Assembly: GCF_965213655.1 (NCBI RefSeq)
Contig: NZ_CBDBZT010000003.1
Location: 3,022,307 to 3,086,306, forward strand
Direction of reading: 5' to 3'
Source of the DNA: Candidatus Palauibacter sp.
GTDB taxonomy: Bacteria > Gemmatimonadota > Gemmatimonadetes > Palauibacterales > Palauibacteraceae
DNA: 64,000 nucleotides
In this document: piece by piece, positions 5,799 to 25,505 of the stretch
How the letters are laid out: every line of letters begins with the position of its first letter
How positions within the stretch are numbered: the first letter of the stretch is position 1
Program-made: the position numbers and the translations under genes
The notes under the pieces: model-generated
Databases searched by the model: none
Told to the model about the DNA's origin: nothing
What the model saw: the letters and a program-made list of their open reading frames with translations, nothing else

Positions 5799-6096
5799 CG
5801 GCCGGATACCCTTCCCGGAGGGATCGCTGGCACGCTGGCGACCCCGGGAGGGCGGGGGCGGGTGGTGCGCAAGCACACCCGGCCCCGAACCCGTACCGAG
5901 CCCTCGGCGAGGGGGGTCGCTAGCGTCACGGCCTGTGACGCCCGCGCGGCACGGGCCGGACAGGCCGTCCCGGCGCAAGACGTTGCCGCGCCGCCGGGTG
6001 CGCGTCGGCCGGGGTGCGCACCGCGGAGGCGCCGAAGTGCGCATCGCACCCCCATGTCGTTTGCGCGTTCAGGTACGGCCGCAAGTCGAGGGACGC
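5799..6096. promoter_or_regulatory. 298-bp non-coding gap inside an otherwise overlapping operon, with inverted repeats; candidate promoter or oriT-like region
   Basis: No credible ORF. The 388-aa minus-frame ORF here is Arg/Pro/Gly-rich filler. Inverted repeats include CGTCAC-GGCCT-GTGACG and GGGAC-AGGCC-GTCCC. Confidence 0.25.
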
Positions 6097-7697: not shown

Positions 7698-7712
7698 TGG
7701 ATCTCCTTCCGT

Positions 7713-8702
7713 TCAGACGGGGGGCTTGATGGGGGCGGCGGCCTTGCTGGCGCCCTGCATGACGAGGGCGACGAACCCGGACCCGGCGGAGCCGGAGCCG
7801 GAGACGAGCATCGAGGCGAGTTCGCCGACCTTGAGGCCGGCCATGAGGCCGCAGACGACGAGCGGCATGAGGACGACGGCCCAGAGCCAGAGCTCGAACG
7901 GGTCCGCCGTGCCGGTGCCCATCAGCGCATCGGCGTAGGTCGTGATGTAGCCCATGCCGACGCCCATGAAGACCCTGAGCACGGCCCCGGCGACGACGCC
8001 GTAGAGCGTGTAGACCATCATGGTCCGGAACCATCCCCAGAACAGGAACGAGAGCGGCTCGAACAAGAGGAACGCGATGAACACGGGTCCCAAGAGGATC
8101 GCGATGGCGATGGCGACCTGCGCCCAGATCACCTGCGCGTAGGTGACGCAGAAGAGCGCGAGCAGGCAGAACACGAGCGAGGCGCCCATCGCGAGCGTGA
8201 CCAGCGAGGAGAAGATCACCGTGGTGCCGGCGGTCACGATCGAGAGCAGGTTGCCCGTCGACCATGCCGCGCTCAGGTGCGCCGAGTACGCCTGCACGAG
8301 CGCGGTCATCTCGGTGTAGCCTGCCGACACCACGTCGGAGAGGAACAAGTTCTGGAACCAGATCCCGCCTCCGGCGACCATGGCCGGGAAGGTGAGCCCC
8401 ACGCCGGGGATCGGGACGATGTAGTAGTGGAGCAGCGTGCGGGGGATGGCGATCCCGATCACGAGCTTGACGATGTCCCAGGGCTGGAACGTGCCGCTGA
8501 ACGCGATCTTGAGTCCCGTCCAGGCGACCATGACGGCCGCGAGCCCGCCCCAGAGCTGAAGTCCCAGCGTATGCACATCGGGCGCGGCTCCGCCGACGAC
8601 GGTGTCGAGCACCACGTCGAGGAAGCTCTTGAAGTCCTGAAGCTGGCCGGGCGGGATCTGCGCCGGGACGTTCGGGTCGATCGACTGCGGAGGCAGTTGC
8701 AT
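7713..8702 (-). CDS. trbL: VirB6/TrbL-family polytopic T4SS membrane protein
   Basis: 329 aa with multiple TM segments and a Gly/Ser-rich C-terminal tail. Confidence 0.7.
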   Translation of the reverse strand: MQLPPQSIDPNVPAQIPPGQLQDFKSFLDVVLDTVVGGAAPDVHTLGLQLWGGLAAVMVAWTGLKIAFSGTFQPWDIVKLVIGIAIPRTLLHYYIVPIPGVGLTFPAMVAGGGIWFQNLFLSDVVSAGYTEMTALVQAYSAHLSAAWSTGNLLSIVTAGTTVIFSSLVTLAMGASLVFCLLALFCVTYAQVIWAQVAIAIAILLGPVFIAFLLFEPLSFLFWGWFRTMMVYTLYGVVAGAVLRVFMGVGMGYITTYADALMGTGTADPFELWLWAVVLMPLVVCGLMAGLKVGELASMLVSGSGSAGSGFVALVMQGASKAAAPIKPPV

Positions 8703-8715
8703 GGCCGTCGCGCCC

Positions 8716-9633
8716 CTACCGGTAGAACGAGGGGACCCGGAACAGTAGCCCGTCCCGGAGTGCGGATCGGTTCAGCAAGGCGGCATCCCGCATCGTCTCG
8801 GCGAACGTGTTCGCCCGAGCGTGGTCGTCGTGCCAACGGCCAAGCCACTCAAGGCGGGCGAGTTCGGCTTGCCTCGCCCGGCTTGCCTCGGCGGCGGCCT
8901 GGTGCGCGAGCACCTGTCCGGCGGCCGCGTTGATCCGGCCCTGGCTCAGAGCGGCGGCGACCCGGGCCTGCTGCAGGGCCGTGTTCGAGAGGTTCCTGTT
9001 CGAGGTCAGGTCCGCGAACGAGCCCTGCGCGCTCTCGATGGTCCCGGCGAGCGCGGCCGCCGCGTCCAGCGCTGCGTAGTCGAGGACCCGCTGCCGGTCG
9101 GCGGCCTCGCGGGCACGGCGGTAGTCCTCGAGCGCGCGCGTCGCGGCCTGCGGCGGGAGGTTCCGGAAGAGCGCCAGTACGTCAGCCTCCGTCACCCGAT
9201 CGGCCGTGCCGTGCGCGGTGCGCCAGAGGTTGGTGAACGAGCGGCCGTTGCCGAAGCGCCGGACGGCGTCCACCGTGCCGCGGGCCTGTCCCGTGAAATC
9301 GGACCGCCAGCCGAGTCCGTCGCGCACGAGTCCGACGGGGTCGGCGGCGAGGTCGGAGAACGGTTGCAGAAGCGCGTCGATTTCGCCGCGCGCGGCGCGC
9401 TCCATGTGGTCGAGCTGGTCTTCAAGTTCCGTAAGCTGGCGGGCCATCGAGCGGATCTGGCTGACCTGGTGCGAGATCTGCGTGATCTGGTTCGCGATGA
9501 TCGTGGCCCGCTGGAACCAGCTGCCGAAGTCGAACTGCGCGCTCGCGGGCCGGGCGCCCGAGAGGAGAAGCAGCGGAACGAATAGGGCGGGGGTGACGAT
9601 GCGGCGGCGCATGGGGGAGTCCTTTCGTGTCAT
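8716..9633 (-). CDS. trbJ: TrbJ/VirB5-like secreted coiled-coil T4SS protein
   Basis: Signal peptide MRRRIVTPALFVPLLLLSGARPASAQ followed by Ala/Gln-rich coiled-coil regions. Operon context. Confidence 0.55.
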   Translation of the reverse strand: MTRKDSPMRRRIVTPALFVPLLLLSGARPASAQFDFGSWFQRATIIANQITQISHQVSQIRSMARQLTELEDQLDHMERAARGEIDALLQPFSDLAADPVGLVRDGLGWRSDFTGQARGTVDAVRRFGNGRSFTNLWRTAHGTADRVTEADVLALFRNLPPQAATRALEDYRRAREAADRQRVLDYAALDAAAALAGTIESAQGSFADLTSNRNLSNTALQQARVAAALSQGRINAAAGQVLAHQAAAEASRARQAELARLEWLGRWHDDHARANTFAETMRDAALLNRSALRDGLLFRVPSFYR

Positions 9634-10874
9634 CGGGGTGTGGTGCGGGTGGGGGTTGGAACCAGGACATCGGAGGTGAACCAGACGCGGAGCCGGTGGC
9701 CCGCGCGGATCGTGATCTCCGGCAGCCGGTTCAGATACCGGTCCAGCATCGAGGCGGCGCTGCCGCCGAGCCCCTGGCCGACGCCCGCCCGGAGTCCGTA
9801 GGGCGAGGCCCCGGCAAGCGTGAGCCCGCTCAGCGCGCCGACCGCACCGGCGGCGGCGAACGTCGAGAGGTAGCGCCGGTTGACCTGGTCCCGGAGCGCG
9901 CTCTCGCCCGCCTGGTTCAGCCCGGCGAACTCGAGGTCGATCGAGCTTCCGTCGGGCAGCAGGAGCCGGTGGAACGCCACGGCGAGACGGCTCTGGTCGC
10001 GGTTCTGGACGGCGCTCGCGGTACCTACGACGCGGGCGCCGCGCGGGACCAGAACCCGCTGGCGGTCGGCCGAGTACAGCGGCACCGACACCATCGCGAG
10101 CACCGGGCCGGGGAACTCGCCGGAGAGTTGGGTGAGCAGCACCGCTTCGAGGAACGAACCCTCGGGGATGCGTTCCCAGCCCGGCGGGTCAAGCGGGCGG
10201 ACCAAACGGCCGGGCTCGGATGTGCGGGGCGAGGGTGGAGCGGCCTGCGGGAGGGGGCCTTCCGCGTTGGGCGCGTAGTATTCTCCGGTTGCCAGCCCGG
10301 CCACCATGTCGGCCTCGAGGGCAGCCAAGGACTGCCCGAGGGACGCGAGCGCGCCGTCGAGTGCCGCATCGGGAGACTCGGGTTCCAGAGAAGACACCGC
10401 AGCCGCATCCAAGGCCCGGTTCGGATCCCGGTGCGACTGCGCGACCGGAAGCGACCGGAGCGAGCGCCTTCGCCGCTCGATCTCCTCGAGTCGGAGCGCC
10501 TCGCGTAGCTCGAACTCGGCTGGGCCGACGCCGGCCCGGGCATTGCCGGCATCCGCCTCCGCGTCTTGTCCGGCTCTCTCCCGTCCGGCGTCATCGGACT
10601 GTTGCCGCTCGCTGTCCGCATCGGCCGCCGCCTGCTGGCTCTGGCGCATCGTCTCGGCATCGAAGCGCCCGTCGAGCGCGCGGCCCGTGCGGTCGTCCAC
10701 GGGCCGCTGCTCCGTGGGCGCGGCTCCCCCGGCCGTATCGTCGGGACGCGACAGCGACGAGGAGAGGAACAGCCCGGCGACGAGCACGGTGATCAGGGCG
10801 ATCCCGGCCTTCGTGACGATGCCGCCCGGCAGCGCCCCCTTCGGCTCCTTCACCCACTGCTTCCAGCCGCTCAT
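9630..10874 (-). CDS. trbI: VirB10/TrbI-family T4SS protein
   Basis: Internal start MSGWKQWVKEPKG at 10872-10874. TM helix, then a Pro/acid-rich linker, then the conserved C-terminal beta domain (..VLVPRGARVVGTASAV..). Confidence 0.75.
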   Translation of the reverse strand: MSGWKQWVKEPKGALPGGIVTKAGIALITVLVAGLFLSSSLSRPDDTAGGAAPTEQRPVDDRTGRALDGRFDAETMRQSQQAAADADSERQQSDDAGRERAGQDAEADAGNARAGVGPAEFELREALRLEEIERRRRSLRSLPVAQSHRDPNRALDAAAVSSLEPESPDAALDGALASLGQSLAALEADMVAGLATGEYYAPNAEGPLPQAAPPSPRTSEPGRLVRPLDPPGWERIPEGSFLEAVLLTQLSGEFPGPVLAMVSVPLYSADRQRVLVPRGARVVGTASAVQNRDQSRLAVAFHRLLLPDGSSIDLEFAGLNQAGESALRDQVNRRYLSTFAAAGAVGALSGLTLAGASPYGLRAGVGQGLGGSAASMLDRYLNRLPEITIRAGHRLRVWFTSDVLVPTPTRTTPR

Positions 10875-11746
10875 CTCGAACCCTCCCCGGGCTCGAACCG
10901 CCAGCGCAGCCGCTCCTCGCCGATCTGGAGCCACCCGTCGCCCAGCACCCGGCGGGCGATGTAGAGGCCGTCCTCGGTGAGGTCGAACGCGACCAGGCTC
11001 GGCTCGCCGTCGGTCAGTTCGTAGAGGGCCGGCGACTCCTGTGCGTGCGACCGGATGTAGGTGAAGAGCCCGTCGTGCCACATCGCCTCGATGAGGAATG
11101 GCCGCTCGGACGCGCCCCGGTCCAGCCGGTACTCGAACCGCAGGCGTTCGGGGTAGGAAGCGTGGAACGCTTCGATCTCCGCAGCCGCCTGCTCCTGCGC
11201 CTCGGCGATCCCGGCCTCGGCCTCCTCGCGTGCCAAGCCCGCGGCATCGGCGGCCTGGGCCGCCATCTGCCGGTACGCCGCCACTTCGCTCCGGGCCACG
11301 AACCCCGGAGTGCCGGACATGCCCGCCGCCTCCGCGCCCGCCTCGACGCGGACGACGAGGTGGGGCGGCTCCTCGCCGTGCTCGGAGACGAGGAACGAGT
11401 AGATGCGCCCCGACTCGCAGACGAGCGCGACGTTCGTGGCCGCGTCCTCGGCCAGCGGTTTGAGATATGCCACGTTCGCCGCGCCGGTCAGGTGCCAGTA
11501 CTCCGAGTCGCCGGCCACGAAGTCGAGGATCCGCTCTTCGGTCGGAAGCACGATTACCGTCGTGTGGCGCACGCGCGCGCGGAGCCGGGGGATCCGCTCA
11601 TTGCCTTCCTCCGGCACCGGCACGCGCAGGTAGGCGGCATCGGCGCTCGTTTGTTGCGCGCAGACGTCGGCGGGAAACGCCGCCACAAGCAGGGTCAGCA
11701 GGACGACGACGATCCCCGGCAGGATCGCGGCGGTGGGTGTCTTCAT
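10871..11746 (-). CDS. trbG: VirB9/TrbG/CagX-family T4SS protein
   Basis: Signal peptide, then TVIVLPTEERILDFVAGDSEYWHLTGAANVAYLKPLAEDAATNVALVCESGRIYSFLV, which matches the VirB9 core. Confidence 0.8.
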   Translation of the reverse strand: MKTPTAAILPGIVVVLLTLLVAAFPADVCAQQTSADAAYLRVPVPEEGNERIPRLRARVRHTTVIVLPTEERILDFVAGDSEYWHLTGAANVAYLKPLAEDAATNVALVCESGRIYSFLVSEHGEEPPHLVVRVEAGAEAAGMSGTPGFVARSEVAAYRQMAAQAADAAGLAREEAEAGIAEAQEQAAAEIEAFHASYPERLRFEYRLDRGASERPFLIEAMWHDGLFTYIRSHAQESPALYELTDGEPSLVAFDLTEDGLYIARRVLGDGWLQIGEERLRWRFEPGEGSR

Positions 11747-14197
11747 GGGGTCACGTCCTTTTCTTTCATGGGAGTGGGATCGGATGGGTTCGGCCAGGCG
11801 AGCACCTCCAGCCCCCGGACCAGTCCGTGCCTCGCCACGGCTTCGGCGCGCCTCTCGGCGTCCAGCGGCGAGGAGGTGTAGAGCCAGTAGCTCTCCGGAT
11901 CGACTTCGAGCCGGAGCACCGCCGCCTCGTCCGGGCGGCGGAGATACAGTTCGCGCTTGGGCGTCAGCTCACGGATCCGGGCCACCTCCGACTCGTTCAA
12001 CCGGAATAGCGCCCCGGCCTCGGCGGGCAACTCGGGGTTGGCGAGGAACAGCTTGGTGGGGATCGATTCCAGGAGCGCCGACGCGCCGGGCGTCCCGGTC
12101 ACGTCCACGGCGGACTGCGTGGCGAGCACGAGCGCGGCGTTCTTCTTGCGCCACGTCTTGGCCGCCTCGGCCAGGTAGTTCAGCACGGCGGGGTCCTGCA
12201 TGTACCGCCACGCCTCGTCCACGACCATCAGCTTGAGCCGCGCGGTCTCCGCCGGGTCCTCGATCTCGAGGCGCATGCGCTCCAGCAGGTACGACAGCGC
12301 CGCCTCGCACAGATCCGCGTGCTCCGCCGCGCCCGCCAGGTCGATCACCTGCCAGTCCCGGAACTCGATATCGGGCGCGTCCGCCGGGGGGTTATCGAAG
12401 AACGCGCCCCACGCGCCGCCCTCCGTCCAGCGGCTCAGCGCGGGCCACATCGCGGAAGGAAGCGAACCGGCCAGCACGCTCAGCGTGCGCCGCTCGGCCC
12501 CGAGCGCGTACAAGTCCTCGATCCGCGCACGGATCTCGCTCGTGTCCGCTCCATCGGCCTCGTATCCGCCCAGTCTCAGCAGCCGGAGCACCCAGCCTGT
12601 GAGGAACTGGAACGTCCTCGTGGTCGGGGGCAGCGCGAAGGGTTGAAGTCGGAGCGTCGGCTCCGCTTCGCCCGGTGCGAGTTCCAGATAGCGGCCTCCG
12701 AGGAGGCGGGTCAGCCAGCGGTACGATCCGCCCAGGTCCAGGATCAGGATGCGCGGATCGTACTTGAGCGCCTCGACCAACAGGAAGTTCAGGGCAAAAC
12801 TCTTGCCCGAACCCGTCGCGCCCAGGATCAGCGTGTGGCCCACGTCGCCACAGAACAGGTCGTAGCGGTACGCCGTCCGCCACGGCGTCTCGAAGGCCGC
12901 CAGCGGCTCGCGGTCCAGATGCCGGCTCGTTCGGTTCCCCTTGGGCGGCCCGAACACGGGCGCGAGGCACGCGGCGAGCCCGGCCGATACGAACACCTTC
13001 CGCACCTGTCGGCGCCTCGGCTGGGCCGGGAGCCTGGCGAACCATGCGGGAAGCTGGCCGTAACCCTCGCGGATCACCTTCGCGTCGTGCGCGGCGAACA
13101 GGCGGCGCACGTCGCCGTCCAGCCGCTCGATCCCTTCGAGTGCGCCGTGGAGCGCCACGGTGAGCGACGCCTCGCCGTAGGCCACGCCGTCGGCTTCGAG
13201 TTCGACCAGAGCGCTCCCAAGCCGGTCCGACTCCGCGACCGCCGCCGAATCGACCATCGCCGCCGCCGTGCCCTGCGCGTCCTGCGCGTGCGCCATCATC
13301 GAGTAGCGCCGCGAGAAATAGTGGCGCTGTGCGCTTCGGATCCGGCGACGCGCCGATTCGACCGTCCACGGCCGCCATTCGAGCGAGACGGTCGTCACGG
13401 CATCGAGGCAGTAGAGGTCTTGGAGCAGGTTGGCATGCGCCTGCCCAGGCGGAGACAGCAGCGAGTACAGGATCACCGGCTCTCCGTCGAGCCGAAGATG
13501 CGAACGCTCCGCCTCAAGCTCCGAGAGCGCGAGCCGCCAGTTCATGCCGCTCCCCGTCGCGCCGTCCCAGAACGTGCCGGGCCTGTTGGTCAAGTCGGAA
13601 AGGAGGCAGGACGCCTCGTGCGCACCGAGCAGCTCGATGGGTGTGTGTTCGGCCACGAGCGAGCGGCCCGTGTCGATCATCGCCCGGAACCGGTCCGCCG
13701 CAGCCTCGATCTCCGAGGCGAGGTAGGTCGCCCCCGTCTTGCCGCCGCGCTTCCGAGGTCGCTTGAGCCGTGATAGCGGTCCCGACCGGGAACTCCCGCC
13801 GACCGGACGGAGGCCCGGGTTGTGCGTCCACACCACGAAGGCGTCGAGCCGCTGGACGCGCCCGGCGAGGAACGCGCTTCGCTTGCGCCCCGACAAGGAC
13901 GCGATGTCCGAACCGTTGTCCTGAGGACTCTCGGCGCGGCTCGGGCCTGAGCATGTGGAACTGGAGGCGCGTGCCGGGACCGAGGCCCGAGAGCAACCTC
14001 TGCCAGAGTCCCAGCACGCGGTCGATCTGCTCCGGCGTGCGACCGTCCACCACGGCGGGCCGGATCCGGCCCGCCGCGATCAGCTCGCCCGAACGGGTCA
14101 GGCAGGTGCGGCCGTCTTCGAGCCAACCCCAGTAGGGCAGCTCCTCGGCCAGCGAGCCCGCCGCCTCGTGGGCCCGGAGTTCGTCGGCGACCCTCAC
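11743..14197 (-). CDS. trbE: VirB4/TrbE T4SS ATPase with an apparent single-nucleotide frame disruption near 13.89-13.94 kb
   Basis: The N-terminal VirB4-like segment (GTG start at 14195-14197 overlapping the trbD stop; ..LPYWGWLEDGRT..QFHMLRPEP) is in one frame (track ORF 13514..14389). The rest (..SAFLAGRVQRLDAF.. and Walker A GATGSGKSFALN) is in the 11743..13896 frame. Confidence 0.8.
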
Positions 14198-14499
14198 CGC
14201 GAACTCCCACGGACCACGATGTGCCAAGGCTCGTCCGCCCACTTGCCCGGATCGTACCGGGCCGGGTAGCGCGCCGCCGCCCGAAGCACCGCGAGCATCG
14301 CCGGATCCCTCCGGCCCGCCAGCCATCCCGCGCCGTAGCAGACCGCGAAAACCAAGCCGCCCGCCACGAGCGAGGCCGTCGCGTTCCACACCGCGACCGC
14401 GAGCGTCGCTCCCATCAGGAACAGCCGCCGCTCGACGCCCAGCACCGTCAGCGGACGATTCAGCGCAGAGTAGCCGGCCCAGCGCGTCAGGCCTCGCAT
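14194..14499 (-). CDS. trbD: VirB3/TrbD-family small T4SS membrane protein
   Basis: Internal start MRGLTRWAGYSALNRPLTV, about 101 aa with a TM segment. 1-nt overlap (TGATG) with trbC, and its stop overlaps the trbE start. Confidence 0.7.
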   Translation of the reverse strand: MRGLTRWAGYSALNRPLTVLGVERRLFLMGATLAVAVWNATASLVAGGLVFAVCYGAGWLAGRRDPAMLAVLRAAARYPARYDPGKWADEPWHIVVRGSSR

Positions 14500-14786
14500 C
14501 AGAACAGCCAGCCCAGGAAGTTCACCGCCCCCACGGCCATCCCGATCCCGAAGATGATCCCGGCCAGCGTGCGCTTGCTCCCGCCCTCGCCGAACGCGAA
14601 CATCAGCCCGCCCACCACGATCGCGATCAGCGACAGGCCGCGCGCGATCGGTCCCGTGAACTGCGTCTGAAGCTCGTTCACCGCGTCCACCCACGGGCTC
14701 GTGCCCTGCGCGTGGAGCGCACCCGGCGTCAGCATGAGCAGCATGGCCCACGCAGCTGCCCGCATCATCGTCAGCAACCTTCTCAT
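14499..14786 (-). CDS. trbC: VirB2/TrbC-family pilin
   Basis: About 95 aa. MRRLLTMMRAAAWAMLLMLTPGALHA signal peptide followed by two hydrophobic helices, which is pilin-like. Confidence 0.7.
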   Translation of the reverse strand: MRRLLTMMRAAAWAMLLMLTPGALHAQGTSPWVDAVNELQTQFTGPIARGLSLIAIVVGGLMFAFGEGGSKRTLAGIIFGIGMAVGAVNFLGWLF

Positions 14787-15070
14787 CGTTTCCCGCCTTT
14801 CACTGAAGGGGTTGGTGGGCGACGACCTTCCCGCCGCCCCGGTTCGGTTTTCGGATCCCGCGAACGATCCGAGCCGTGCGTGTTTTCGTAGGCTTCCATG
14901 AAGGCCAGAATCCGCTCCACCGTCGCCAGCCTCGGCGAACGTCCCCGGCGCACGTCGCCCACGAACTTCCGGTCGCCGACCGCGCGTTCCCCGAACTCCG
15001 TTGGCGACATCCCCGTCCTTTGCAGGAATGCCGTCATGCGCCGCTCGAACTCCTTCGTCAGGTTCTTCAT
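14783..15070 (-). CDS. XRE/Cro-type HTH regulator, first gene of the trb operon
   Basis: Internal start MKNLTKEFERRMTAFLQRTGMSPTEFGERAVGD..TVERILAFMEAYE at 15068-15070. The stop overlaps the trbC start. Confidence 0.55.
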   Translation of the reverse strand: MKNLTKEFERRMTAFLQRTGMSPTEFGERAVGDRKFVGDVRRGRSPRLATVERILAFMEAYENTHGSDRSRDPKTEPGRREGRRPPTPSVKGGKR

Positions 15071-15113
15071 CGCCCGAAAACCAAAACACGGCGTGGGCAA
15101 CGAGCGCAAGATA

Positions 15114-15136
15114 GTGGGAAATACCCTATTTCCCAC
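15114..15136. promoter_or_regulatory. perfect palindrome GTGGGAAATA-ccc-TATTTCCCAC in the divergent intergenic region; candidate operator
   Basis: 10-bp perfect inverted repeat with a 3-nt spacer, about 45 bp upstream of the minus-strand HTH gene. Local GC is lower than the surroundings. Confidence 0.5.
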
Positions 15137-15378
15137 GTCGTTGAGAGACAACGAGTTGCGGAATCGGGTTTCCGCACCCCTCCGCCAGCGGGGCGGAAAA
15201 CACCCCGATGGCCTTGAACCACTGGGCTATCGTGGAATCAACCGACGCTATCCGACACGGTGCCTCGAAACTCCCGTGAAAGGGAATCGTGTGGGTGTCG
15301 GCTCGGGGGCTACCCCTACCTGTGGAAGGCGATCGTATTCGGATCGGTGTATGGATCCGATTGCGTTGGCATCGATAA

Positions 15379-15394
15379 GTGGGTAATTTCCCAC
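15379..15394. promoter_or_regulatory. related half-site pair GTGGGTAATTTCCCAC immediately upstream of the repressor ATG
   Basis: Shares the GTGGG / TTTCCCAC arms with the palindrome at 15114-15136. Overlaps the GTG start proposed by the ORF track. Confidence 0.35.
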
Positions 15395-15396
15395 TC

Positions 15397-16110
15397 ATGG
15401 GACGAAGAAGGAAAGATGCCGATCAACTGGACCCGGTGCGCCGGAGGCTGCTCAGGCTGTTGGACGAGAGCCGCACGACCATGCGCACGGCCTCGCAGGC
15501 AATCCAGCGAAACGACGCCTACCTGCACCAGTTCATCCACCGGGGCACGCCCAAGGTGCTGGCCGAGGACGACCGCGAGGCGCTCGCCGAGCATCTGGGG
15601 TGCAGCCCCGACCTGCTCAGGCACGACCGAAGGTTGACGCGCCGGGCGCGTCCGAATCCGGCGCCGCCGAGTCCCTACGCGGCTCCGAGGGGCTACAGCG
15701 CGGTGCCGGAGATCAATGTGCGCGCGTCGGCGGGTCCGGGCGCGTGGAACGACGACTTCGAGGAGGAGACCGACACCTGGCTGTTCGCCGATCCGCTCAT
15801 CCGCCACGAGTTCCGGGCCAGGCCAGAGGATCTGCGGATGATCACCGTGGACGGGGACTCGATGGAGCCGGTGCTCTCAAGCGGCGACCGCATCCTCATC
15901 GACGTGAGCCTCAAGGTGCCGGTCCCGCCCGGCATCTTCGTCATCTGGGACGGCATGGGGCTCGTCGCCAAGCGGATCGAGCACCTGCCCCACTCCGAGC
16001 CGCCCAAGGTCGTGCTCAAGTCCCTCAACCCCGAGTACGACAGCTACGAGTGTGCTGCCGAAGAGGTCCGCGTCGTCGGACGCGCCGTCTGGGCCTCCAG
16101 AAGGCTGTAG
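15397..16110 (+). CDS. CI/LexA-like repressor (XRE HTH plus S24 peptidase autocleavage domain)
   Basis: GDSMEP (Ser nucleophile) and VAKRI (Lys) motifs. HTH near the N-terminus. ATG at 15397; the track lists a GTG at 15379. Confidence 0.8.
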   Translation: MGRRRKDADQLDPVRRRLLRLLDESRTTMRTASQAIQRNDAYLHQFIHRGTPKVLAEDDREALAEHLGCSPDLLRHDRRLTRRARPNPAPPSPYAAPRGYSAVPEINVRASAGPGAWNDDFEEETDTWLFADPLIRHEFRARPEDLRMITVDGDSMEPVLSSGDRILIDVSLKVPVPPGIFVIWDGMGLVAKRIEHLPHSEPPKVVLKSLNPEYDSYECAAEEVRVVGRAVWASRRL

Positions 16111-16400
16111 GGCGCGACGTTCGGATGGCACCCGACTGCACGATCCCGGAAGCGCGGAACGGACCTCGCACCACGCGGTCGCTCCGTGAAGGACGTGCGT
16201 TATATTGACGGATTCGATCCCGTACTTGGAGACGGCAGCCATGAACAGCTTGCCCACGCAGACCGGCGGCATGTCGGCGGTCGGCGATTCGCCCGGCGAC
16301 GGGGCAACGGCTGGGCTGGCATGAGCGCTGCGCCGGTTGGCCCGCGGCCTCGCGGAGATCCAGAGCCGGCGATTTCCGGCGGCGTGCGGCAACTAAACCG

Positions 16401-16656
16401 ATGAGTCGCCGCGAGCGGCTGGTGCGGACCATCCTCGGCGGCCGCTCCGACGCGGAACATCCGCTTCGATGAACTGCGGGCGCTGATGCGGCATCTTGGA
16501 TTCAACGAGCGGGTGCGCGGCAGCCAGCACCTCTTCGACAAGGAAGGTGTCGTGGAGATCGTTAACCTTCAGAGCCGGGGCGGCCACGCCAAGCCCTACC
16601 AAGTGAGGCAGGTTCGGCGATTGATCCTCAAGTACAAGCTGGGAGCGGAAGACTGA
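16401..16656 (+). pseudogene. hicA: hicA-family toxin gene interrupted by a +1 frameshift near 16455
   Basis: Frame A reads MSRRERLVRTILGGRSDAEHPLR then stops. The +1 frame continues NIRFDELRALMRHLGFNERVRGSQHLFDKEGVVEIVNLQSRGGHAKPYQVRQVRRLILKYKLGAED, the HicA core. The junction is at gcg-g-aac. Confidence 0.6.
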
Positions 16657-16868
16657 TGTACAAATTCGAAATCATTCTCTATTGGAGCAACGAGGACGAG
16701 GCTTTCGTCGCGGAGGCTCCCGAGTTGCCCGGGTGCATGGCGTACGGAGACGATCAGGAGAGCGCGTTGGGGAACATCAAGGATGCGATGCAGTTCTGGA
16801 TCGACCGGGCACGGGAGTTGGGACGGCCCGTCCCGGAGCCCAAGGACGATCGTCTCATGCTTGCCTGA
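16656..16868 (+). CDS. hicB: HicB-family antitoxin
   Basis: 70 aa, MYKFEIILYWSNEDEAFVAEAPELPGCMAYGDDQESALGNIKDAM. TGATG overlap with the hicA stop. Confidence 0.7.
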   Translation: MYKFEIILYWSNEDEAFVAEAPELPGCMAYGDDQESALGNIKDAMQFWIDRARELGRPVPEPKDDRLMLA

Positions 16869-17148
16869 CTCGCCTCATGAAACATCCTCCTACTCCTCGG
16901 CCTCGTGCGCGACGCGGGTGGACCTCGACGTCGAGGCAACGCAGCACTTTGGGGAGACGGCGGCGGCGCGGAGGAAACGGAGCCGATCGAGGCCGCCAAC
17001 CGCGATGGTCGAGGCCCAACTCGAATCGGACGCAGCCGCCGAACGGATCACGGAGCACCGCAGAGGCCAAGCGGGAGGCCACGCCGATACAGGCGGGGGC
17101 CCTCCTCCGCCTCGGCGACCGGGCTGCCGTGGGCCGGTCGCTCTCCCC

Positions 17149-19791
17149 ATGAGGACGGTACCAACGCTCTGGCGCGATCAAGCGCCTAAGCCCGCTTGGG
17201 GCAAGTACCGTGACGAGACCGGCGAGTTCCACCCGCTGGAGCACCATTCCGCCGATGTCGCCGCATGCTTCGAGGCCTTGCTTCGCGATCCGGTACTCCG
17301 GGAGCGCTTCACGCAGGCGGCGGGCGCGGAGGGCTTCAGCCGCCTCGCGGAAGCGCGGCTCTGTCTCATCGCCTTTCTTCACGACTTCGGGAAGCTGAAC
17401 GTGGGGTTTCAGTTCGGCGTGCTGGGCGCTGGCTCGCCGGCACCAGAGAGGGTCAATCACATCAAGGCTGCACTCTGGGCTTGCGAGCGCATGGAAATGC
17501 TTCAGGCGCTCGGTCTCTTGGACATGGTCGCTTGGGGTGCCGAAGCACTGGAAGAATACCTCCGCGCAGCACTCGGCCATCATGGGACCCCGGGCCGTCA
17601 ACCGGTTTCACGGCGAGGTCCCGACAAGATCTGGCGCCCGTTCGGCGACTACGACCCGGGCGCGGCCGCGCAATTGCTGGCTCAACGCGCGCGCGAATGG
17701 TTCCCGGAGGCGTTCGAAGCAGGTCCCGAGCTCCCGCGCTCGCCCGCACTGGCCCATCTCTTCGCCGGAGTGCTGACGCTCGCCGACCAGCTCGGGTCGA
17801 ACGAGGAGTTCTTCCCCTTCTGCTCGTCCCCTGATCCGGATTACTTGCAACGGGCCCGTCAACACGCGCGGCGAGCGGTAGCTGAGTCGGGTTTCCGGCG
17901 AGAGGATTGGGCCAGCGAGGCGAGAGCTGCCGACTTTAGCGCGGACGCAGACTATCGGAAGGTCTTCGAGTTCGATTCCCCGCGGCCCTTGCAACGGGCT
18001 GTGGCCGATGTACCGGTCGACTGCCCGTTACTGATCCTTGAGAGCGAGACCGGGTCGGGCAAGACGGAAGCAGCGTTGATACGTTTTGCCAAGCTATGGA
18101 GGGCTGGAAAGGTCGACGGCCTGTACTTTGCGCTCCCTACCCGAGCTGCTGCAGCTCAACTCCATCGACGAGTCCACTCGGCGTTGGAGCGGTTGTTCCC
18201 AAGCCGCGCCCAGCTTTCGACGGTCTTGGCGGTGCCAGGCTATCTGAAGGTTGGAGAAACGCATGGGAAACGCGTCGGTCGGTTCGACGTGGCATGGACA
18301 GACGATCCAGGCGAGGCGGTGCTGCGTGCGCGATGGTCGGCAGAGAGCGCACGCAAGTTCCTGACTGCCACCGCGGCCGTGGGGACGGTCGACCAAGTCT
18401 TGCTTGCAGGGCTGCTGGCTAAGTGGGCCCATTTTCGAGGTGCTTCACTTGCTCGTAGTCTCCTCGTCGTCGACGAGGTTCACGCGAGCGACATCTATAT
18501 GAGCGAGGTGCTTCGCGCGTTGCTCCGTGATCATCTTGCCGTGGGTGGCCATGCGCTACTCATGTCCGCCACCCTCGGTTCCAGAGCGCGGGATGCCCTC
18601 GTCAAGAATGCCACCGCGCGTCGAGACCCGCCCGGTCTACAGCAAGCCAAGGCTCATCCCTACCCTGCGCTGACGCTGGCTCGACGAGATCAGACCTTCT
18701 CCGTCCAGAGCTTCGAGCATACGGGGTACACCAAACGGGTTGGGATGACCGCCGAGCCACTGTTGGGGCAGATTGCGGGTATCGCCTCCCGGGCGCTGGG
18801 TGAGGCGGAGAGGGGTGGCAAAGTTCTCGTCATCCTCAACACCGTCGGGCAGGCGCAGGCCGTCTTCGCGGAGGTCTGCGGTCAGGGAGGTCAGCGGCTC
18901 TGCCTTCAGGTGGAAGATGGCCCCGCCGTCCATCACAGCCGCTTCGCGGTGGAGGACAGGCGACTGTTGGACGCTGCCGTTGAGAAGACGCTAGGAAAGA
19001 AAAGGCCGGTGGGCCGTCAGATCGTGATCGGGACGCAGACCCTGGAGCAATCTTTGGATATCGATGCCGACCTGCTCATCTCCGACCTTTGTCCCGTGGA
19101 CGTTCTACTTCAACGAATCGGCAGGGTCCAGCGGCACGCCCGGACGGAGAGACCAGCTGGCTTCTCCCGCCCGCGCTGCGTGGTGCTCGTGCCGGCGAAG
19201 GGCCTCGATGCGGGTCTCGATGGAGGATTGCTCCGTTACGGTCTGGGCATGTCAAGGCATGGGGGGATCTATCGGGATCTCCGGGTGCTGGAACTGACCC
19301 GTCGGTTGATCGACACACGACCCCAATGGCTGATCCCGGGATCGAACCGGGAGCTCGTAGAGGAAGCGACGCACCCGGAACGGCTCGCGGCGATCGAGGA
19401 CGAGTTGGGCGGCCGCTGGCTGGACAAGGCGAACGAAGCCATCGGTAGAGCTGCGGCGGAACAGCTGACGGCGAGGGCGCACCTGCTGAACCGCGGCAGC
19501 CGATTCTCCGACCTAGTATTCCCTCCGCTTGACGAGCGAGTGCGGACTCGCTTGGGCGACGACGGTCCGCGCATTAGTCTCTCGGAGCCCGTCGAGGGAC
19601 CATTCGGCCGATCGGTCAAGACGTTCAATCTGCCGGCACACTTGTTCGGGAAACCCTCCGACCTCCCGTCCCGCGACGAGATCGAGTCGGCGAAGTTGGA
19701 GCGAACCGACGACGGGCTGTTTCTCCATGTAGGGTCGCGAACGTTTCCGTACGATCGCAGGGGGATCAGTCCGGCGACGGAGAAGGCATGA
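17149..19791 (+). CDS. cas3: Cas3 (HD nuclease plus SF2 helicase), type I-E
   Basis: HD motif LIAFLHDFGKLNVGFQ, helicase motif I LESETGSGKTEAAL, DEVH-like VVDEVHASD. Alternative upstream starts are 17008 and 16783 (the latter would overlap hicB). Confidence 0.9.
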   Translation: MRTVPTLWRDQAPKPAWGKYRDETGEFHPLEHHSADVAACFEALLRDPVLRERFTQAAGAEGFSRLAEARLCLIAFLHDFGKLNVGFQFGVLGAGSPAPERVNHIKAALWACERMEMLQALGLLDMVAWGAEALEEYLRAALGHHGTPGRQPVSRRGPDKIWRPFGDYDPGAAAQLLAQRAREWFPEAFEAGPELPRSPALAHLFAGVLTLADQLGSNEEFFPFCSSPDPDYLQRARQHARRAVAESGFRREDWASEARAADFSADADYRKVFEFDSPRPLQRAVADVPVDCPLLILESETGSGKTEAALIRFAKLWRAGKVDGLYFALPTRAAAAQLHRRVHSALERLFPSRAQLSTVLAVPGYLKVGETHGKRVGRFDVAWTDDPGEAVLRARWSAESARKFLTATAAVGTVDQVLLAGLLAKWAHFRGASLARSLLVVDEVHASDIYMSEVLRALLRDHLAVGGHALLMSATLGSRARDALVKNATARRDPPGLQQAKAHPYPALTLARRDQTFSVQSFEHTGYTKRVGMTAEPLLGQIAGIASRALGEAERGGKVLVILNTVGQAQAVFAEVCGQGGQRLCLQVEDGPAVHHSRFAVEDRRLLDAAVEKTLGKKRPVGRQIVIGTQTLEQSLDIDADLLISDLCPVDVLLQRIGRVQRHARTERPAGFSRPRCVVLVPAKGLDAGLDGGLLRYGLGMSRHGGIYRDLRVLELTRRLIDTRPQWLIPGSNRELVEEATHPERLAAIEDELGGRWLDKANEAIGRAAAEQLTARAHLLNRGSRFSDLVFPPLDERVRTRLGDDGPRISLSEPVEGPFGRSVKTFNLPAHLFGKPSDLPSRDEIESAKLERTDDGLFLHVGSRTFPYDRRGISPATEKA

Positions 19792-21449
19792 ACGTCGGGT
19801 CGCGGACAACGGACGTTGAGAACCACCGGAAATCATCATCGAGGAAAGCGTCGATGCACAATCTCCTTGCTGAGCAGTTGATCCGTTTCCGCAGCGTGGA
19901 CGGCTTGGTAGAGGTCGAGTCGCTGCCCGGCGTTTACGCAGCCATGGTTGCAGATCGCGTTGAGTCGTTCCCCGCATTGCGGCCGCACCAGCGGCACGCG
20001 TGGCATGCCTTCCTCGCGCAACTGGCCGTCTTGGCCTTGGTGCGAGCCCAGCGACACGAGCCGCCCCAACTCGAAGGCGAGTGGCGACAACTCCTCCGGG
20101 CGCTGACCCCCGCTTTCCGCGACGACGCACCTTGGTGCCTTGTCGTTCAAGACCCGTCTCGGCCGGCGTTCATGCAGTGTCCGGCCACCAGCGGGCTTGC
20201 CGAGTATAGGAAATCGGTGGACACGCCCGATGACCTGGATCTTCTCGTGACTTCCAAGAACCATGACTTGAAGTCGTCTGTTGCGGCCGAAGCTGCGGTG
20301 GACGATTGGCTATTCTCCTTGGTAAGCCTCCAAACAATGAGCGGGTATCCGGGTCGGGGGAACTACGGAGTTGCTCGCATGAACGGAGGATGGTCCTCGC
20401 GGCCCTGCTTGGGGCTTGCCCCGGCCGCTGGTGGTGTCGGTGCACATCTTGTCCATGACATCCGTCAAATGATTGATCAGCGGTCAGCTCTGCTCGAGCT
20501 ATACGAGCAGTATTTCCTAACCGAGAGCGGCGTAGGACTGACATGGCTCGAGCCTTGGGACGGGAGGCATTCGCTACGGCTCGTGGATCTCGATCCCTAC
20601 TTCATTGAGATCTGCCGACGAGTCCGAATGGTGAGCCACGGGCGGGGATTCGTAGCCCGCTGTGCTTCGTCAAGGGTCCGTCGAATCGCGGCGGCTGAGG
20701 CCAAAGGCGCTGTTGGCGACCACTGGACGCCCGTCAAAGTAGGCGACGAGACGAAGGCTTTCTCGGTTACCGAGGCGGGATTTCGTTACGACCGACTCGC
20801 CGAGTTGATTCTCGACCAGAGCGCCTACCTGCCCGTGCCGGCAATGTCCATCGGCTCGTCGGAGGGCGACTCTTGGCGCCTCGTAGCTCGCGGCGTAGCG
20901 GGGGGGCAAGGGGGTAAGACCAAGGGCTACCATGAGCGGGCCGACATCATCCTGTCCCCGCGAGTAGCCCGTTCGCTCTTTCTCGGAGGCGAGGACCGTC
21001 TGACCTTGGAGGAACTCGCAAGACGCCAACTCGCCGAGGTCAAGGAAGTCATCTCCGCCCTGCGCCGCGGGATCGCCATCGCAGCGAGTGGAGGGAAGGA
21101 CGCGGGACCCGTCGACAGGACCGATCGGAAGGCGGCGGCACCGTACGCCCTGCGGCTCGACTCGTTCGCCGATGCTCATTTTTTTGAAGCCCTCCAGTCG
21201 CGCTTTGGAGTACCCGAGGAGCTACAAGCCGGAGCGCGTCGCCGGTTTGTGCGACGCCTGATCAGACGGGCGGAAGCGCTGCTCGGGGAAGCGATTCGAA
21301 CGGTTTCTTCTTCGGCGATACATCGCTACAGGGCGGAGGCTCGCGCCAGGAGCGCATTTCACTGGCGCCTGCGCGGATCCGACAGCGTCTTCAGCGATCA
21401 ACCAGATATCTTTGAGACCGAAAGCGAGGAGGAGCCACATGAGACCTGA
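19788..21449 (+). CDS. cas8e: Cas8e/Cse1 (CasA), Cascade large subunit
   Basis: 553 aa with ATGA overlap to cas3. LRPHQRHAWHAFLAQL is a Cse1-type N-terminus. Confidence 0.85.
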   Translation: MNVGSRTTDVENHRKSSSRKASMHNLLAEQLIRFRSVDGLVEVESLPGVYAAMVADRVESFPALRPHQRHAWHAFLAQLAVLALVRAQRHEPPQLEGEWRQLLRALTPAFRDDAPWCLVVQDPSRPAFMQCPATSGLAEYRKSVDTPDDLDLLVTSKNHDLKSSVAAEAAVDDWLFSLVSLQTMSGYPGRGNYGVARMNGGWSSRPCLGLAPAAGGVGAHLVHDIRQMIDQRSALLELYEQYFLTESGVGLTWLEPWDGRHSLRLVDLDPYFIEICRRVRMVSHGRGFVARCASSRVRRIAAAEAKGAVGDHWTPVKVGDETKAFSVTEAGFRYDRLAELILDQSAYLPVPAMSIGSSEGDSWRLVARGVAGGQGGKTKGYHERADIILSPRVARSLFLGGEDRLTLEELARRQLAEVKEVISALRRGIAIAASGGKDAGPVDRTDRKAAAPYALRLDSFADAHFFEALQSRFGVPEELQAGARRRFVRRLIRRAEALLGEAIRTVSSSAIHRYRAEARARSAFHWRLRGSDSVFSDQPDIFETESEEEPHET

Positions 21450-21999
21450 CGATGTTCCGGCACCGGCGGGGGATCGCAGCGCGGATCTCGGTTTGCTCGT
21501 TGTACGGTTGGCCGCTCACATCGTGCGTCTCAAGCCGGGACCGGCGGCGGCGCTTCGCCGAGGGCCCCTCGAAGGCGAAGGGAGCGCAGCGCTCTGGCAG
21601 TTGATGGCGACCAACGGAATTGAGGGGCGGGGGGATGATCTGCCCAAGTGGGGCACCATCATGCAAGCTATCGCAATACTCACCCCGAGGGGCGGCGACG
21701 ACAGGAAGCGGTCCGCCCACGATGGAAGCAAGCCGATGGGCGCGGTGCTTGCCGAGGCTAACATATCGGAGTTGCGGCTTGCGCGACTCCTTGCGTCGCG
21801 GGGCGAGATGCGCCGGAAGCTAGCTGTCCGCACCTGTCGACGACTCGCCGCCAGTGAATCAGTCAGATTCGATCTGCGCACCCTCGCGAAGTTCATTTTG
21901 TGGGACAACGATGAGAGTCAAGCCCATTGGATCGCCCGTCACTACTATAGGATCCCCGCCAAGGCGAGAGACGCACAACTAGGAGATGCTAGCAAATGA
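21439..21999 (+). CDS. cse2: Cas11/Cse2 (CasB), Cascade small subunit
   Basis: About 186 aa. Alpha-helical and Arg-rich. Sits between cas8e and cas7. Confidence 0.7.
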   Translation: MRPDDVPAPAGDRSADLGLLVVRLAAHIVRLKPGPAAALRRGPLEGEGSAALWQLMATNGIEGRGDDLPKWGTIMQAIAILTPRGGDDRKRSAHDGSKPMGAVLAEANISELRLARLLASRGEMRRKLAVRTCRRLAASESVRFDLRTLAKFILWDNDESQAHWIARHYYRIPAKARDAQLGDASK

Positions 22000-23120
22000 C
22001 GACTTCCCGTTTCCTTCAGATCCACAGCCTCCACGGCTACTCTTCGGTGCTATTGAATCGCGACGATTCCGGGCTGGCAAAGCGCATCGAATACGGTGGG
22101 TGTATGCGTACCCGCATATCGTCGCAGTGTCTCAAGCGGCACTGGCGGGTCGCCGATAGCGTGCATGCGCTCACTGGTATCGACGGTGCCCCCACGGCGA
22201 CTCGCTCGCGCGAGATCGTCACTCTGGAAGTGGTGCGTCCGCTGCGCGAAGCCGAGCACGATGAGGATGTGGTGACCGTGGTGGACAAGGCCTTTCAAAC
22301 CGCCGTGTATGGGGACAGGGGCGACCAGCGTAGCAGCCGTCAGCCGCTCCTCCTGGGCTCGCCGGAGGTCGAATTCCTCGCCAAGGAGGCGAGCCGGATC
22401 GCGGCATTGCCACCGGCGGAGGCGAAGGCTGCCGCAAAGGCTTGGGCAAAGAACTCCCGGGCTAACATGAAGGCGATGAGAGAAGAGTGTCGCCTGCCCG
22501 GCGGACTCGTAGCGGCGCTGTTCGGTCGGATGGTGACGTCTGACGTGGAAGCGAACATCCATGCGGCCGTACACGTTGCCCACGCCTTCACCGTGCACCG
22601 CGAAGAGAGCGAGAGCGATTACTTCACGGTCGTTGACGATCTCCGGCGGATCGAGGATGATCCCGGGGCCGACCACATTGGCGAGACGGAACTCACCAGC
22701 GGTCTCTTCTACGGGTACGTGGTGGTCGACCGTAAAATCCTGCTGAATAATCTGGCCGGGGACATCGAGATGGCGGGGGAGGTCTGTCGACGCCTGATCC
22801 ACCTTATTGCCACGGTGACCCCCGGAGCCAAGTTGGGTTCGACCGCACCCTATGGGTACGCCAGTTGGATGATGGCGGAAGCCGGAGACCGTCAGCCGCG
22901 CAGCCTCGCTGGGGCCTTCCGGCGTCCATGCAGCGCCACCACTCAAGCCGCCGAGAAGGCGTTGAGCGGGCATCTTGCTCGTCTCGACGAGACCTACGAG
23001 ACGGGCGAGGTGAGGAGAGCTTTGAGTCTCAACTGTGCGGCGATGCCCAATGCGGAACTGGTTTCACTAAGCGGGCTCGCGGATTGGGCGGCTGACGTCA
23101 TGGCACGAGGGCAAACGTGA
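21996..23120 (+). CDS. cas7: Cas7e (CasC), Cascade backbone subunit
   Basis: 374 aa, MTTSRFLQIHSLHGYSSVLLNRDDSGLAKRIEYGGCMRTRISSQCLKRHWR. Confidence 0.85.
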   Translation: MTTSRFLQIHSLHGYSSVLLNRDDSGLAKRIEYGGCMRTRISSQCLKRHWRVADSVHALTGIDGAPTATRSREIVTLEVVRPLREAEHDEDVVTVVDKAFQTAVYGDRGDQRSSRQPLLLGSPEVEFLAKEASRIAALPPAEAKAAAKAWAKNSRANMKAMREECRLPGGLVAALFGRMVTSDVEANIHAAVHVAHAFTVHREESESDYFTVVDDLRRIEDDPGADHIGETELTSGLFYGYVVVDRKILLNNLAGDIEMAGEVCRRLIHLIATVTPGAKLGSTAPYGYASWMMAEAGDRQPRSLAGAFRRPCSATTQAAEKALSGHLARLDETYETGEVRRALSLNCAAMPNAELVSLSGLADWAADVMARGQT

Positions 23121-23830
23121 TGCGGTGGTTGCATTTGAGGTTCGAAGCTCCCCTCGCTTCGTTTGGAGGGGAGGCGATTGATGCCCGAGGCGTGATTCGC
23201 GACTTCCCCGCTCAATCCATGCTCACGGGGCTCTTCGCAAACGCCCTCGGCTGGACCCGGGCCATGAAGACGGAGCACCAGGCGCTTCAGGACCGCATCG
23301 TGTTCGCGGCCGCCCACGACGAGAGCCCCGACATTCGGCGTCTTACGGACTACCAAACGGCACAGCTCGGCAAAGCTGACAGGGCTTGGACGACAAGGGG
23401 GACTCCGGTGGGACGTGAGAGCGCTGCCAGTACTCTTGCCGGAGCACACCAGCGCTGGCGGGATTACCATTCGGACCTCCGACTCTCCCTCGTCGTGCGT
23501 CTTGAGCCCGCTGAATCAACCCCGACGCTTGAACAACTCGCGCAGGCTTTGAAACGGCCCGCCCGCCCGCTGTTTCTTGGTCGAAAGCCATGCCTCCCCT
23601 CGACCGCGATGTTCCGTGCTTGGGTGGACGAGGCGGATGCGCACAAGGCACTCAGCGCAGTCCTTCCGGCCGGCAGGGACTACTACGCCATGTGGCCACC
23701 CCCGGAGACGACACGGGGAGTGCACGCGACAAGGCTTGTTGCGGATGAACGAAACTGGGCGAGCGGTCTGCACGGCGGAGCTCGCAGAATCTGTACGGGC
23801 CGCGTGGATGGACGGGAGCGAGTGCGATGA
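23117..23830 (+). CDS. cas5: Cas5e (CasD)
   Basis: 237 aa, MMRWLHLRFEAPLASFGGEAIDARGVIRDFPAQSMLTGLFANALGW. Confidence 0.85.
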   Translation: MMRWLHLRFEAPLASFGGEAIDARGVIRDFPAQSMLTGLFANALGWTRAMKTEHQALQDRIVFAAAHDESPDIRRLTDYQTAQLGKADRAWTTRGTPVGRESAASTLAGAHQRWRDYHSDLRLSLVVRLEPAESTPTLEQLAQALKRPARPLFLGRKPCLPSTAMFRAWVDEADAHKALSAVLPAGRDYYAMWPPPETTRGVHATRLVADERNWASGLHGGARRICTGRVDGRERVR

Positions 23831-24612: not shown

Positions 24613-24618
24613 CGACTC

Positions 24619-25500: not shown

Positions 25501-25505
25501 GTCAG

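Follow-up and report, generated by a model that had tools for sequence, protein, structure and literature searches.

In the SXT/R391 ICEs (integrative and conjugative elements) from Vibrio and other Gammaproteobacteria, the repressor SetR is encoded divergently from a cro-like first gene, has a leaderless mRNA and intergenic operators, and is cleaved when the SOS response is induced (PMC4542580; PMC5812530). In ICEBs1 and ICESt1/3, a phage-like repressor directly represses a long operon for excision and then conjugation and also autoregulates, and the ICESt1/3 repressor Arp1, an S24 homologue of CI, has been implicated in induction by mitomycin C (PMC5812530). In the conjugative plasmid pLS20 of Bacillus subtilis, the repressor Rco is encoded divergently from the main conjugation operon and controls both promoters through separated operators (PMC4207663). 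ICEBs1 and pLS20 are thus existing examples of a phage-like repressor acting directly on a conjugation operon. The present analysis concerns a locus in the genome of a sponge-associated Candidatus Palauibacter (Gemmatimonadota), where, within a stretch of 64,000 nt (the window), a gene for a CI-like S24 repressor stands back to back with a type IV secretion system (T4SS) operon that begins with a gene for a small Cro-like protein. It appears rather likely that the pair constitutes an immunity switch of the CI/Cro type, derived from phage, with the T4SS operon under its direct control.

The closest described system is SetR/CroS of SXT/R391, and the locus works alike but is no member of it, the likeness being one of layout and published description. 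Both have an S24 CI-like gene divergent from an operon led by a Cro-like gene, dyad-symmetric operators in the intergenic region (candidate ones here), an Ala-Gly site with a Ser/Lys dyad, and a repressor gene that apparently lies near one end of the element, beside variable cargo. For setR a leaderless mRNA transcribed from a weak promoter has been demonstrated (PMC4542580), and one is predicted for the present repressor gene. In SXT/R391 the derepressed operon encodes the FlhCD-like master activator SetCD, which in turn switches on the transfer genes; the operon here runs straight into T4SS genes, and no SetCD/FlhCD-like activator was found with Pfam or NCBIfam. In place of a cluster of four operators (OL, O1-O3), the locus has two single palindromes separated by about 262 bp; the N-terminal domain of the repressor has no HTH_3 domain detected by Pfam; and the host phylum is a different one.

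Other systems are alike in some respects and not in others. With the CI/Cro regions of lambdoid phages (lambda, HK022, 434, P22) the locus has in common divergent promoters, shared operators and an S24 domain with 33-38% identity to HK022 CI, and 47 viral contigs carry this very cassette near phage recombination and replication genes. However, the 'lytic' operon in the window is a T4SS operon, the number and spacing of operators differ, and the intergenic region, which spans some 65-90 bp where the cassette is viral, is here expanded to 326 bp with extra conserved blocks. ICEBs1 (ImmR/ImmA-Pxis) and ICESt1/3 resemble the arrangement proposed here in the direct repression of a long operon, and in relatives of the locus an AlpA/excisionase-like gene stands after the cro-like gene and before trbC. 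ImmR of ICEBs1, however, is without an S24 domain and depends on the adjacent M78 metalloprotease ImmA, whereas the repressor described here carries S24 and has no ImmA-like neighbour. Both ICEBs1 and ICESt1/3 are Firmicutes elements, with T4SSs unrelated to that of the locus. Rco of pLS20 is similar in that the repressor gene is divergent from the main conjugation operon and separated sites serve both promoters; it differs in having no S24 domain, in being relieved by an anti-repressor, and in its overlapping promoters and DNA looping, where no helical phasing is seen in the present locus.

The divergent repressor and Cro-like genes

The sequence facts reported in a first-pass annotation of this DNA were all present, with two coordinates corrected. 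It had described a repressor facing the trb operon, which is now recognised as a conserved divergent CI-like/Cro-like pair, and a small helix-turn-helix (HTH) gene at the head of the T4SS operon with its stop codon overlapping the pilin gene. The latter was confirmed, since the stop overlaps the ATG of trbC as ATGA at 14783-14786, an arrangement by which the small gene is translationally coupled to trbC. The lower GC content that it noted for the intergenic region (15071-15396) is also real, at 57.7% against 67.6% for the window. The 237-aa S24 protein has 100% identity to an NCBI entry (P0001) on a 3.37-Mb contig; exact-sequence look-ups for the window's own proteins found no match on record.

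The repressor carries a Peptidase_S24 domain (PF00717, 2e-13 in Pfam) and matches PHROG 4 'transcriptional repressor' (6e-33) as well as phrog_6201 'CI-like repressor'. Residues 100-218, the C-terminal domain, show the above level of identity not only to CI of HK022 but also to CI of Klebsiella phages. When its AlphaFold2 (AF2) model was compared by Foldseek, it matched LexA (T. maritima LexA, 3.7e-7), the lambda CI cleavage fragment (cleavage-competent structure 2hnf, 7e-6), the 186 repressor and UmuD', and also RecA-bound structures of LexA, CI and UmuD. The catalytic Ser/Lys motifs, which had been called intact, are so: Ser155 (GDSMEP; codon 15859-15861) is kept in all 120 homologues and Lys192 (VAKRIEH; codon 15970-15972) in 118 of them. 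The two are 37 residues apart, as are the corresponding residues of LexA. A segment with Ala112-Gly113 (VRASA112-G113PGAW; encoded at 15730-15735) lies 43 residues before Ser155, and has Ala-Gly in 111 of the 120 homologues; in self-cleaving repressors of the LexA/lambda CI type (MEROPS S24) the Ala-Gly or Cys-Gly scissile bond precedes the Ser by about 35-45 residues. Conservation at these three places indicates selection for cleavage, and the repressor possesses all of the requirements for self-cleavage that can be read from a protein sequence. Its N-terminal 95 residues define a family, outside Pfam, that comprises 770 clusters at the 50% identity level, with an invariant motif, ASxAIGRNxAYLHQF.

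The 95-aa protein on the opposite strand has no match in Pfam, NCBIfam, PHROGs or PDB sequence profiles, and its 96 homologues, some of which are fused to AlpA, are all unnamed. In its AF2 model, the N-terminal 65 residues or so form an HTH domain of the XRE/Cro type with four helices (pLDDT, the AF2 confidence score, is about 90 for residues 11-60), and a disordered basic tail follows. The best Foldseek matches were C.AhdI, SinR, C.Esp1396I, HipB and the N-terminal domain of the 434 repressor, with root-mean-square deviations of 1.5-2.0 Å, and this superposition of the four helices makes the protein XRE/Cro-type by fold. The first-pass designation as an XRE HTH protein was borne out by the fold search alone. 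Homology of the small protein to the N-terminal domain of the repressor was considered and rejected (hhalign probability <1%); the DNA-binding domains of both belong to families that Pfam does not describe.

When one genome was scanned for each species, 273 places encoding relatives of the repressor were found, of which 80 were kept for comparison. Together with a viral set of 50 IMG/VR contigs that carry the repressor, many of them 40-48 kb in length, about 130 related loci were available overall. A small gene lies divergently upstream of the repressor gene in about 70 of the 80 genomic loci and in 47 of the 50 viral contigs. What comes after it varies. T4SS genes follow in about half of the genomic loci, all of them Gemmatimonadota-type elements, with either an ATGA overlap or short gaps, while an AlpA/excisionase-like gene, sometimes fused to the small gene, follows in 33 of the 80 and is itself succeeded by T4SS genes or tyrosine integrases. 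In Alphaproteobacteria the cassette heads phage-type early genes, and in one viral contig that was inspected the pair stands beside genes for an excisionase, a Sak4-like annealase, a Cas4-type exonuclease and a Dda-like helicase. The varied downstream genes and the viral occurrence characterise it as a portable, phage-type immunity cassette that was adopted by T4SS elements.

Sites and promoters of the intergenic region

Two sites in the intergenic region had been put forward as candidate operators, a perfect 23-bp palindrome about 45 bp upstream of the small gene and a related sequence at the start of the repressor gene. The first, here named Site 1 (O_T; Table 1), lies 43 nt upstream of the small-gene ATG (15070, minus strand), and the corresponding distance is 41-45 nt in all Gemmatimonadota loci. 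Locus alignments show that its arms are conserved in sequence and its centre is variable. Within the window, GTGGGAAATAcccTATTTCCCAC matches only here when up to 3 mismatches are allowed, and 0/100 shuffles gave such a match. The best candidate for a leftward promoter, P_T, which should not be taken as an established one, has its -10 (TAGGGT) at the centre of Site 1, and when 42 distinct loci were placed in register the TTG of its -35 was found in 39 of them.

The second site, Site 2 (O_R), needed some revision. The sequence GTGGGTAATTTCCCAC is present at 15379-15394, but the GTG at 15379 is not the start codon of the repressor gene. The start is the ATG at 15397, which is conserved in more than 60 loci and is used in the NCBI record, and this places Site 2 just upstream of the gene, where it ends 2 nt before the ATG, and not inside it. 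The promoter of the repressor gene agrees with the E. coli consensus at only 3+3 positions and was found by cross-locus register: with 55 distinct loci aligned on Site 2 without gaps, the TTG is present in 54, the first T of the -10 in 54, and its A2 and T6 in all 55, the -10 being 6-10 nt from the ATG (7 nt in the window). The GG and CC that flank this -10 are invariant in all 55 loci, which is beyond what a promoter requires. Alphaproteobacterial and viral versions have the same promoter plus a leader of about 25 nt that bears a Shine-Dalgarno sequence. As the start position in these leadered versions equals the position of the Gemmatimonadota ATG, the repressor mRNA of Gemmatimonadota is predicted to be leaderless, starting at or beside the A of ATG 15397.

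The arm sequence GTGGG..CCCAC, TTTCCCAC, is common to both sites, and in several lineages it changes in step at both (CCTAC in L031, ATCCT in L048). The outer bases of Site 2 vary symmetrically in L021 (ATGGG..CCCAT). The operator core, GG/CC with TTTCC, is near-invariant, as is the putative recognition helix of the repressor, RNxAYLHQF. Over 72 related loci, the 9-mer GTRGGAAAT was counted 70 times within 19.1 kb of equivalent intergenic DNA and 3 times in the other 734 kb, and the half-site is about 770-fold enriched in the equivalent intergenic regions. Matches in the window beyond the two sites are at chance level (e.g., a near-match at 33964 inside an open reading frame, ORF). Further operator copies in the window, such as one before the gene for the type IV coupling protein (T4CP), were rejected because none exceeded chance. 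As candidate operators, then, the palindromes are conserved, locus-specific and overlap promoter elements, but Site 2 is not a plain copy of Site 1, having a 5-6-5 form around the repressor -10; its geometry points to autoregulation or to action by the Cro-like protein.

Several additional conserved features lie near Site 1. A leader motif (15094-15110) sits between it and the small-gene ATG. On its other side, palindrome 2 is the counterpart of TTGCGTCAA, the -35 element that the back-to-back promoters share in compact versions of the phage type, and the centres of Site 1, palindrome 2 and palindrome 3 are about 21-22 bp apart. Three conserved motifs lie at 15138-15198 and at the equivalent positions of the 80 genomic loci (L001-L080), namely TCGTTGAnnnnCAACGAG, CGGAA-N6-TTCCG and CCGCCAGCGGGG. 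Palindrome 3 and the block at 15180-15198 may represent an auxiliary operator, an activator site or an origin of transfer (oriT).

The proposed switch and its alternatives

The SetR/CI-type switch suggested in the first-pass annotation is retained as far as the divergent CI-like/Cro-like pair, the promoter-overlapping palindromes and the SetR/CroS-like layout are concerned, and is altered in the role of Site 2 and in the start codon. In the silent state, repressor made at a low level from a leaderless mRNA would bind as a dimer to Site 1, and since this would cover the -10/+1 of the leftward promoter it would stop transcription of the whole operon, from the cro-like gene by way of trbC, virB3 and virB4 through to the T4CP gene. 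At higher concentrations of repressor Site 2 would be occupied as well, limiting the synthesis of the repressor itself. A trigger, the likeliest being RecA filaments on damaged DNA by analogy with lambda CI, LexA, SetR and Arp1, would then lead to self-cleavage between Ala112 and Gly113, with which the DNA-binding and dimerisation domains would come apart and Site 1 would become free. The Cro-like protein, being the first product of the operon, would shut the repressor promoter by way of Site 2 and/or the neighbouring palindromes and so lock the ON state. That the cassette elsewhere also drives an AlpA/excisionase-like gene and integrases, or phage early genes, marks it as a portable on/off module.

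A number of observations weigh against this switch. No HTH was found in the N-terminal domain of the repressor by Pfam, even at E<=5, its AF2 model has five helices at residues 13-74 with a pLDDT of only 40-60, and a profile of 27 diverse N-terminal domains gave marginal matches to HTH proteins (AM32, 0.015; HNF-1 POU-like, 0.1); the helix pattern, the invariant motif and these marginal matches suggest, but do not prove, a lambda-repressor-like HTH. About 9 of the 120 family members are without the Ala-Gly. At P_T, a -10 of the form TAnnnT is found in only 20 of the 42 distinct loci, and a strict sigma70 consensus scan found no promoter in the region. The half-sites are spaced 10-3-10 in Site 1 and 5-6-5 in Site 2, so one dimer cannot contact the two sites alike. 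The distance between the sites ranges from 127.5 to 277.5 bp over the loci, with a resultant of about 0.2 at periods of 10-11 bp, a spread that does not support looping with fixed helical phasing; loops of such length are possible. Lastly, VirB4 in this copy is split when compared with the intact 815-aa homologue of a close relative (L131), residues 1-87 and 96-814 being in different frames, and neither a relaxase nor an integrase turned up in the window, which makes transfer from this copy doubtful. The VirB4 break, a 5-nt indel near 13917-13937, reflects either a pseudogene or an assembly error, and if real would probably leave this T4SS copy inactive.

Because of the difference in half-site spacing, a toggle with separate operators is left as a rival, in which the S24 repressor would bind only the 10-3-10 site and the Cro-like protein the 5-6-5 site and/or palindromes 2 and 3, each repressing the promoter of the other and the repressor having no autoregulation. 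The two DNA-binding domains being without detectable homology, and the presence of three further conserved palindromes or blocks that could serve another binder, are also in its favour, but both sites share their arms and covary in L031 and L048, which fits a single recognising protein or else two that share operators in the manner of CI and Cro, and this toggle is considered unlikely. The same architecture could also respond to something other than SOS, if an anti-repressor, another protease or a different signal were to inactivate the repressor, with the S24 domain serving mainly for dimerisation or for a slow, RecA-independent self-cleavage. RecA dependence is not readable from sequence, the Ala-Gly has been lost in some family members, ICE switches have varied triggers (e.g., ImmA/RapI in ICEBs1; PMC5812530), and the hosts are sponge symbionts, of which the SOS biology is uncharacterised. 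Set against these points are the conservation of Ser155, Lys192 and Ala-Gly, the structural match to RecA-bound LexA, CI and UmuD, and the genes beside the pair, none of which is ImmA-like or encodes an anti-repressor (those after the repressor are HicAB and cas3), and little weight is given to a non-SOS trigger.

It could be argued, too, that the palindromes are RNA hairpins, terminators, attenuators or parts of an oriT and not operators, as a perfect inverted repeat is able to fold into a hairpin, oriT regions are often intergenic and contain inverted repeats, and the blocks at 15138-15198 are also present in AlpA/integrase elements that have no T4SS and are possibly mobilisable. However, it is the sequence of the arms that is conserved and not merely their complementarity, the asymmetric arms of many loci would mispair, Sites 1 and 2 are both centred on -10 positions, and the same half-sites are present in phage contigs lacking conjugation genes. 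A structured RNA in the block beside Site 1 (15137-15225) was rejected, as RNAalifold, applied to this block in 26 loci and not to the two palindromes themselves, predicted no consensus pairing for either strand; Rfam at E<=5 returned only noise over 14700-16900; and a consensus scan found no intrinsic terminator with a T-run in the region. A non-operator role for the palindromes is for these reasons very improbable.

The T4SS operon, flanking genes and related elements

Table 1. Features of the repressor-T4SS locus and the basis on which each was assigned.
Feature	Positions	Strand	Basis
T4CP coupling protein gene	3771-6044	-	Pfam/NCBIfam
Leftward operon beyond trbC, VirB3 to T4CP	3771-14502	-	Pfam, NCBIfam, gene order in L131
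VirB9/CagX, VirB10/TrbI, VirB6/TrbL and VirB8/TrbF-like genes	within 3771-14502	-	Pfam/NCBIfam
VirB4/TrbE gene, frameshift-split	11743-14197	-	Pfam/NCBIfam; comparison with L131
VirB3 gene	14194-14502	-	Pfam/NCBIfam
trbC/VirB2 pilin gene, second of operon	14499-14786	-	PF04956 TrbC, 1e-17
Cro-like small gene, 95 aa	14783-15070	-	AF2 and Foldseek fold; conserved divergence from S24 gene
Conserved leader motif TGGCAA-N5/6-GCAAG (minus strand CTTGC..TTGCC)	15094-15110		Alignments of 34 and 19 loci
Site 1 (O_T), candidate operator over leftward promoter	15114-15136		Perfect 10-3-10 palindrome GTGGGAAATAcccTATTTCCCAC
P_T, candidate leftward promoter	15123-15151	-	-35 TTGTCT 15146-15151, N17, -10 TAGGGT 15123-15128
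Palindrome 2, TCGTTGAgagACAACGA	15138-15154		Contains the candidate P_T -35
Palindrome 3, TGCGGAAtcgggtTTCCGCA	15157-15176		DNA conserved in 26 aligned loci
Conserved block CTCCGCCAGCGGGGCGG	15180-15198		DNA conserved in 26 aligned loci
Repressor promoter	15361-15389	+	-35 TTGCGT 15361-15366, N17, -10 TAATTT 15384-15389; ungapped register
Site 2 (O_R), GTGGGTAATTTCCCAC	15379-15394		5-6-5 palindrome GTGGG-TAATTT-CCCAC bracketing repressor -10
S24 (LexA/CI-type) repressor gene, 237 aa	15397-16110	+	PF00717, PHROG, Foldseek, residue conservation

After trbC the operon continues with genes for VirB3, VirB4, VirB9, VirB10, an unknown protein, VirB6, a VirB8/TrbF-like protein, another unknown protein and T4CP, and the gene order called independently in L131 is identical. 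A set of genes for mating-pair formation (MPF-T-like) plus the coupling protein is present, namely VirB2, B3, B4, B6, B8-like, B9, B10 and T4CP. Beyond the T4CP gene there are minus-strand ORFs (617-3769) of about 402, 248, 373 and 104 aa with coding-like GC content at third codon positions, for which Pfam, NCBIfam, PDB sequences and PLSDB plasmids gave no matches. A relaxase, if the element has one, belongs to an undescribed family or is encoded outside of the window, and the element may extend beyond it. The integrases and AlpA proteins of related loci have no homologue in the window, and no tRNA was found there.

The other flank is occupied by cargo. A HicA/HicB toxin-antitoxin pair (16401-16868) comes just after the repressor gene, with HicB intact (16656-16868) and HicA frameshifted, as one additional G has been inserted near 16454-16456. 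Both are intact in L131, and the pair is also found in L045-L047 and L055-L056. A remnant of 109 bp (17039-17147) encodes the N-terminus of an AbiEi antitoxin that is truncated by cas3, and an intact AbiEi gene follows the repressor in five other loci (L003, L022, L065, L068, L069). Read-through across this remnant is responsible for the artefactually long 'Cas3' ORF that begins at 16783. The CRISPR-Cas locus (16783-28673) is a complete type I-E system with Cas3, Cse1/CasA, Cas7, Cas5, Cas6e and Cas1, and an array at 25897-28673 of 46 repeats, GGTTCCCCCGCACGGGCGGGGATAGACC; it directly adjoins the repressor end of the T4SS element. In L131 BREX-like genes occupy this position, which looks like a variable hotspot for defence cargo. 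Comparison of the CRISPR spacers with all related loci retrieved gave no meaningful match. Past the array are insertion-sequence genes (28999-30033 and 31548-32885) for an rve integrase-core transposase and HTH_Tnp_1.

Some genomes carry more than one copy of the cassette. A 3.7-Mb Longimicrobiales chromosome (OZ220479.1) has seven (L052, L063, L064, L067, L070, L072, L077), several of them linked to T4SS operons, and six of their repressors are 89-98% identical; CBDBPR010000004.1 is likewise multi-copy (L009, L011, L027, L047). In OZ242312.1, a T4SS-linked and an AlpA/integrase-linked copy (L008, L014) encode repressors that are 90.5% identical and have identical Sites 1 and 2, the first ~135 nt of their intergenic regions being nearly identical and the middle different. 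This likeness suggests that cross-regulation may take place between an ICE-like and a smaller integrative element. More tentatively, with a near-invariant recognition helix and operator core, and a cassette common to co-resident T4SS, AlpA/integrase and prophage-like elements, it could be speculated that these form a 'homo-immune' network in sponge-associated Gemmatimonadota, a possibility that we regard as real although doubtful. If so, one pool of repressor would silence all of the elements and one trigger would fire them together, and small integrase/AlpA islands could time their excision to that of the T4SS element needed for their transfer.

Gemmatimonadota are largely uncultured and include abundant symbionts of sponges, and a literature search at the level of titles and abstracts found no work on the regulation of their mobile elements. 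The mechanism itself repeats the SetR/CI paradigm, a known way of silencing a mobile element until stress. What the locus offers is a defined regulatory module, made up of two small proteins, two candidate operators and one clear promoter, in which the two DNA-binding domain families are outside Pfam, and the same on/off cassette has moved, across phyla, among phages, T4SS elements and islands with integrases. Should the coupling to SOS hold, many elements of these symbionts would be mobilised together under stress.

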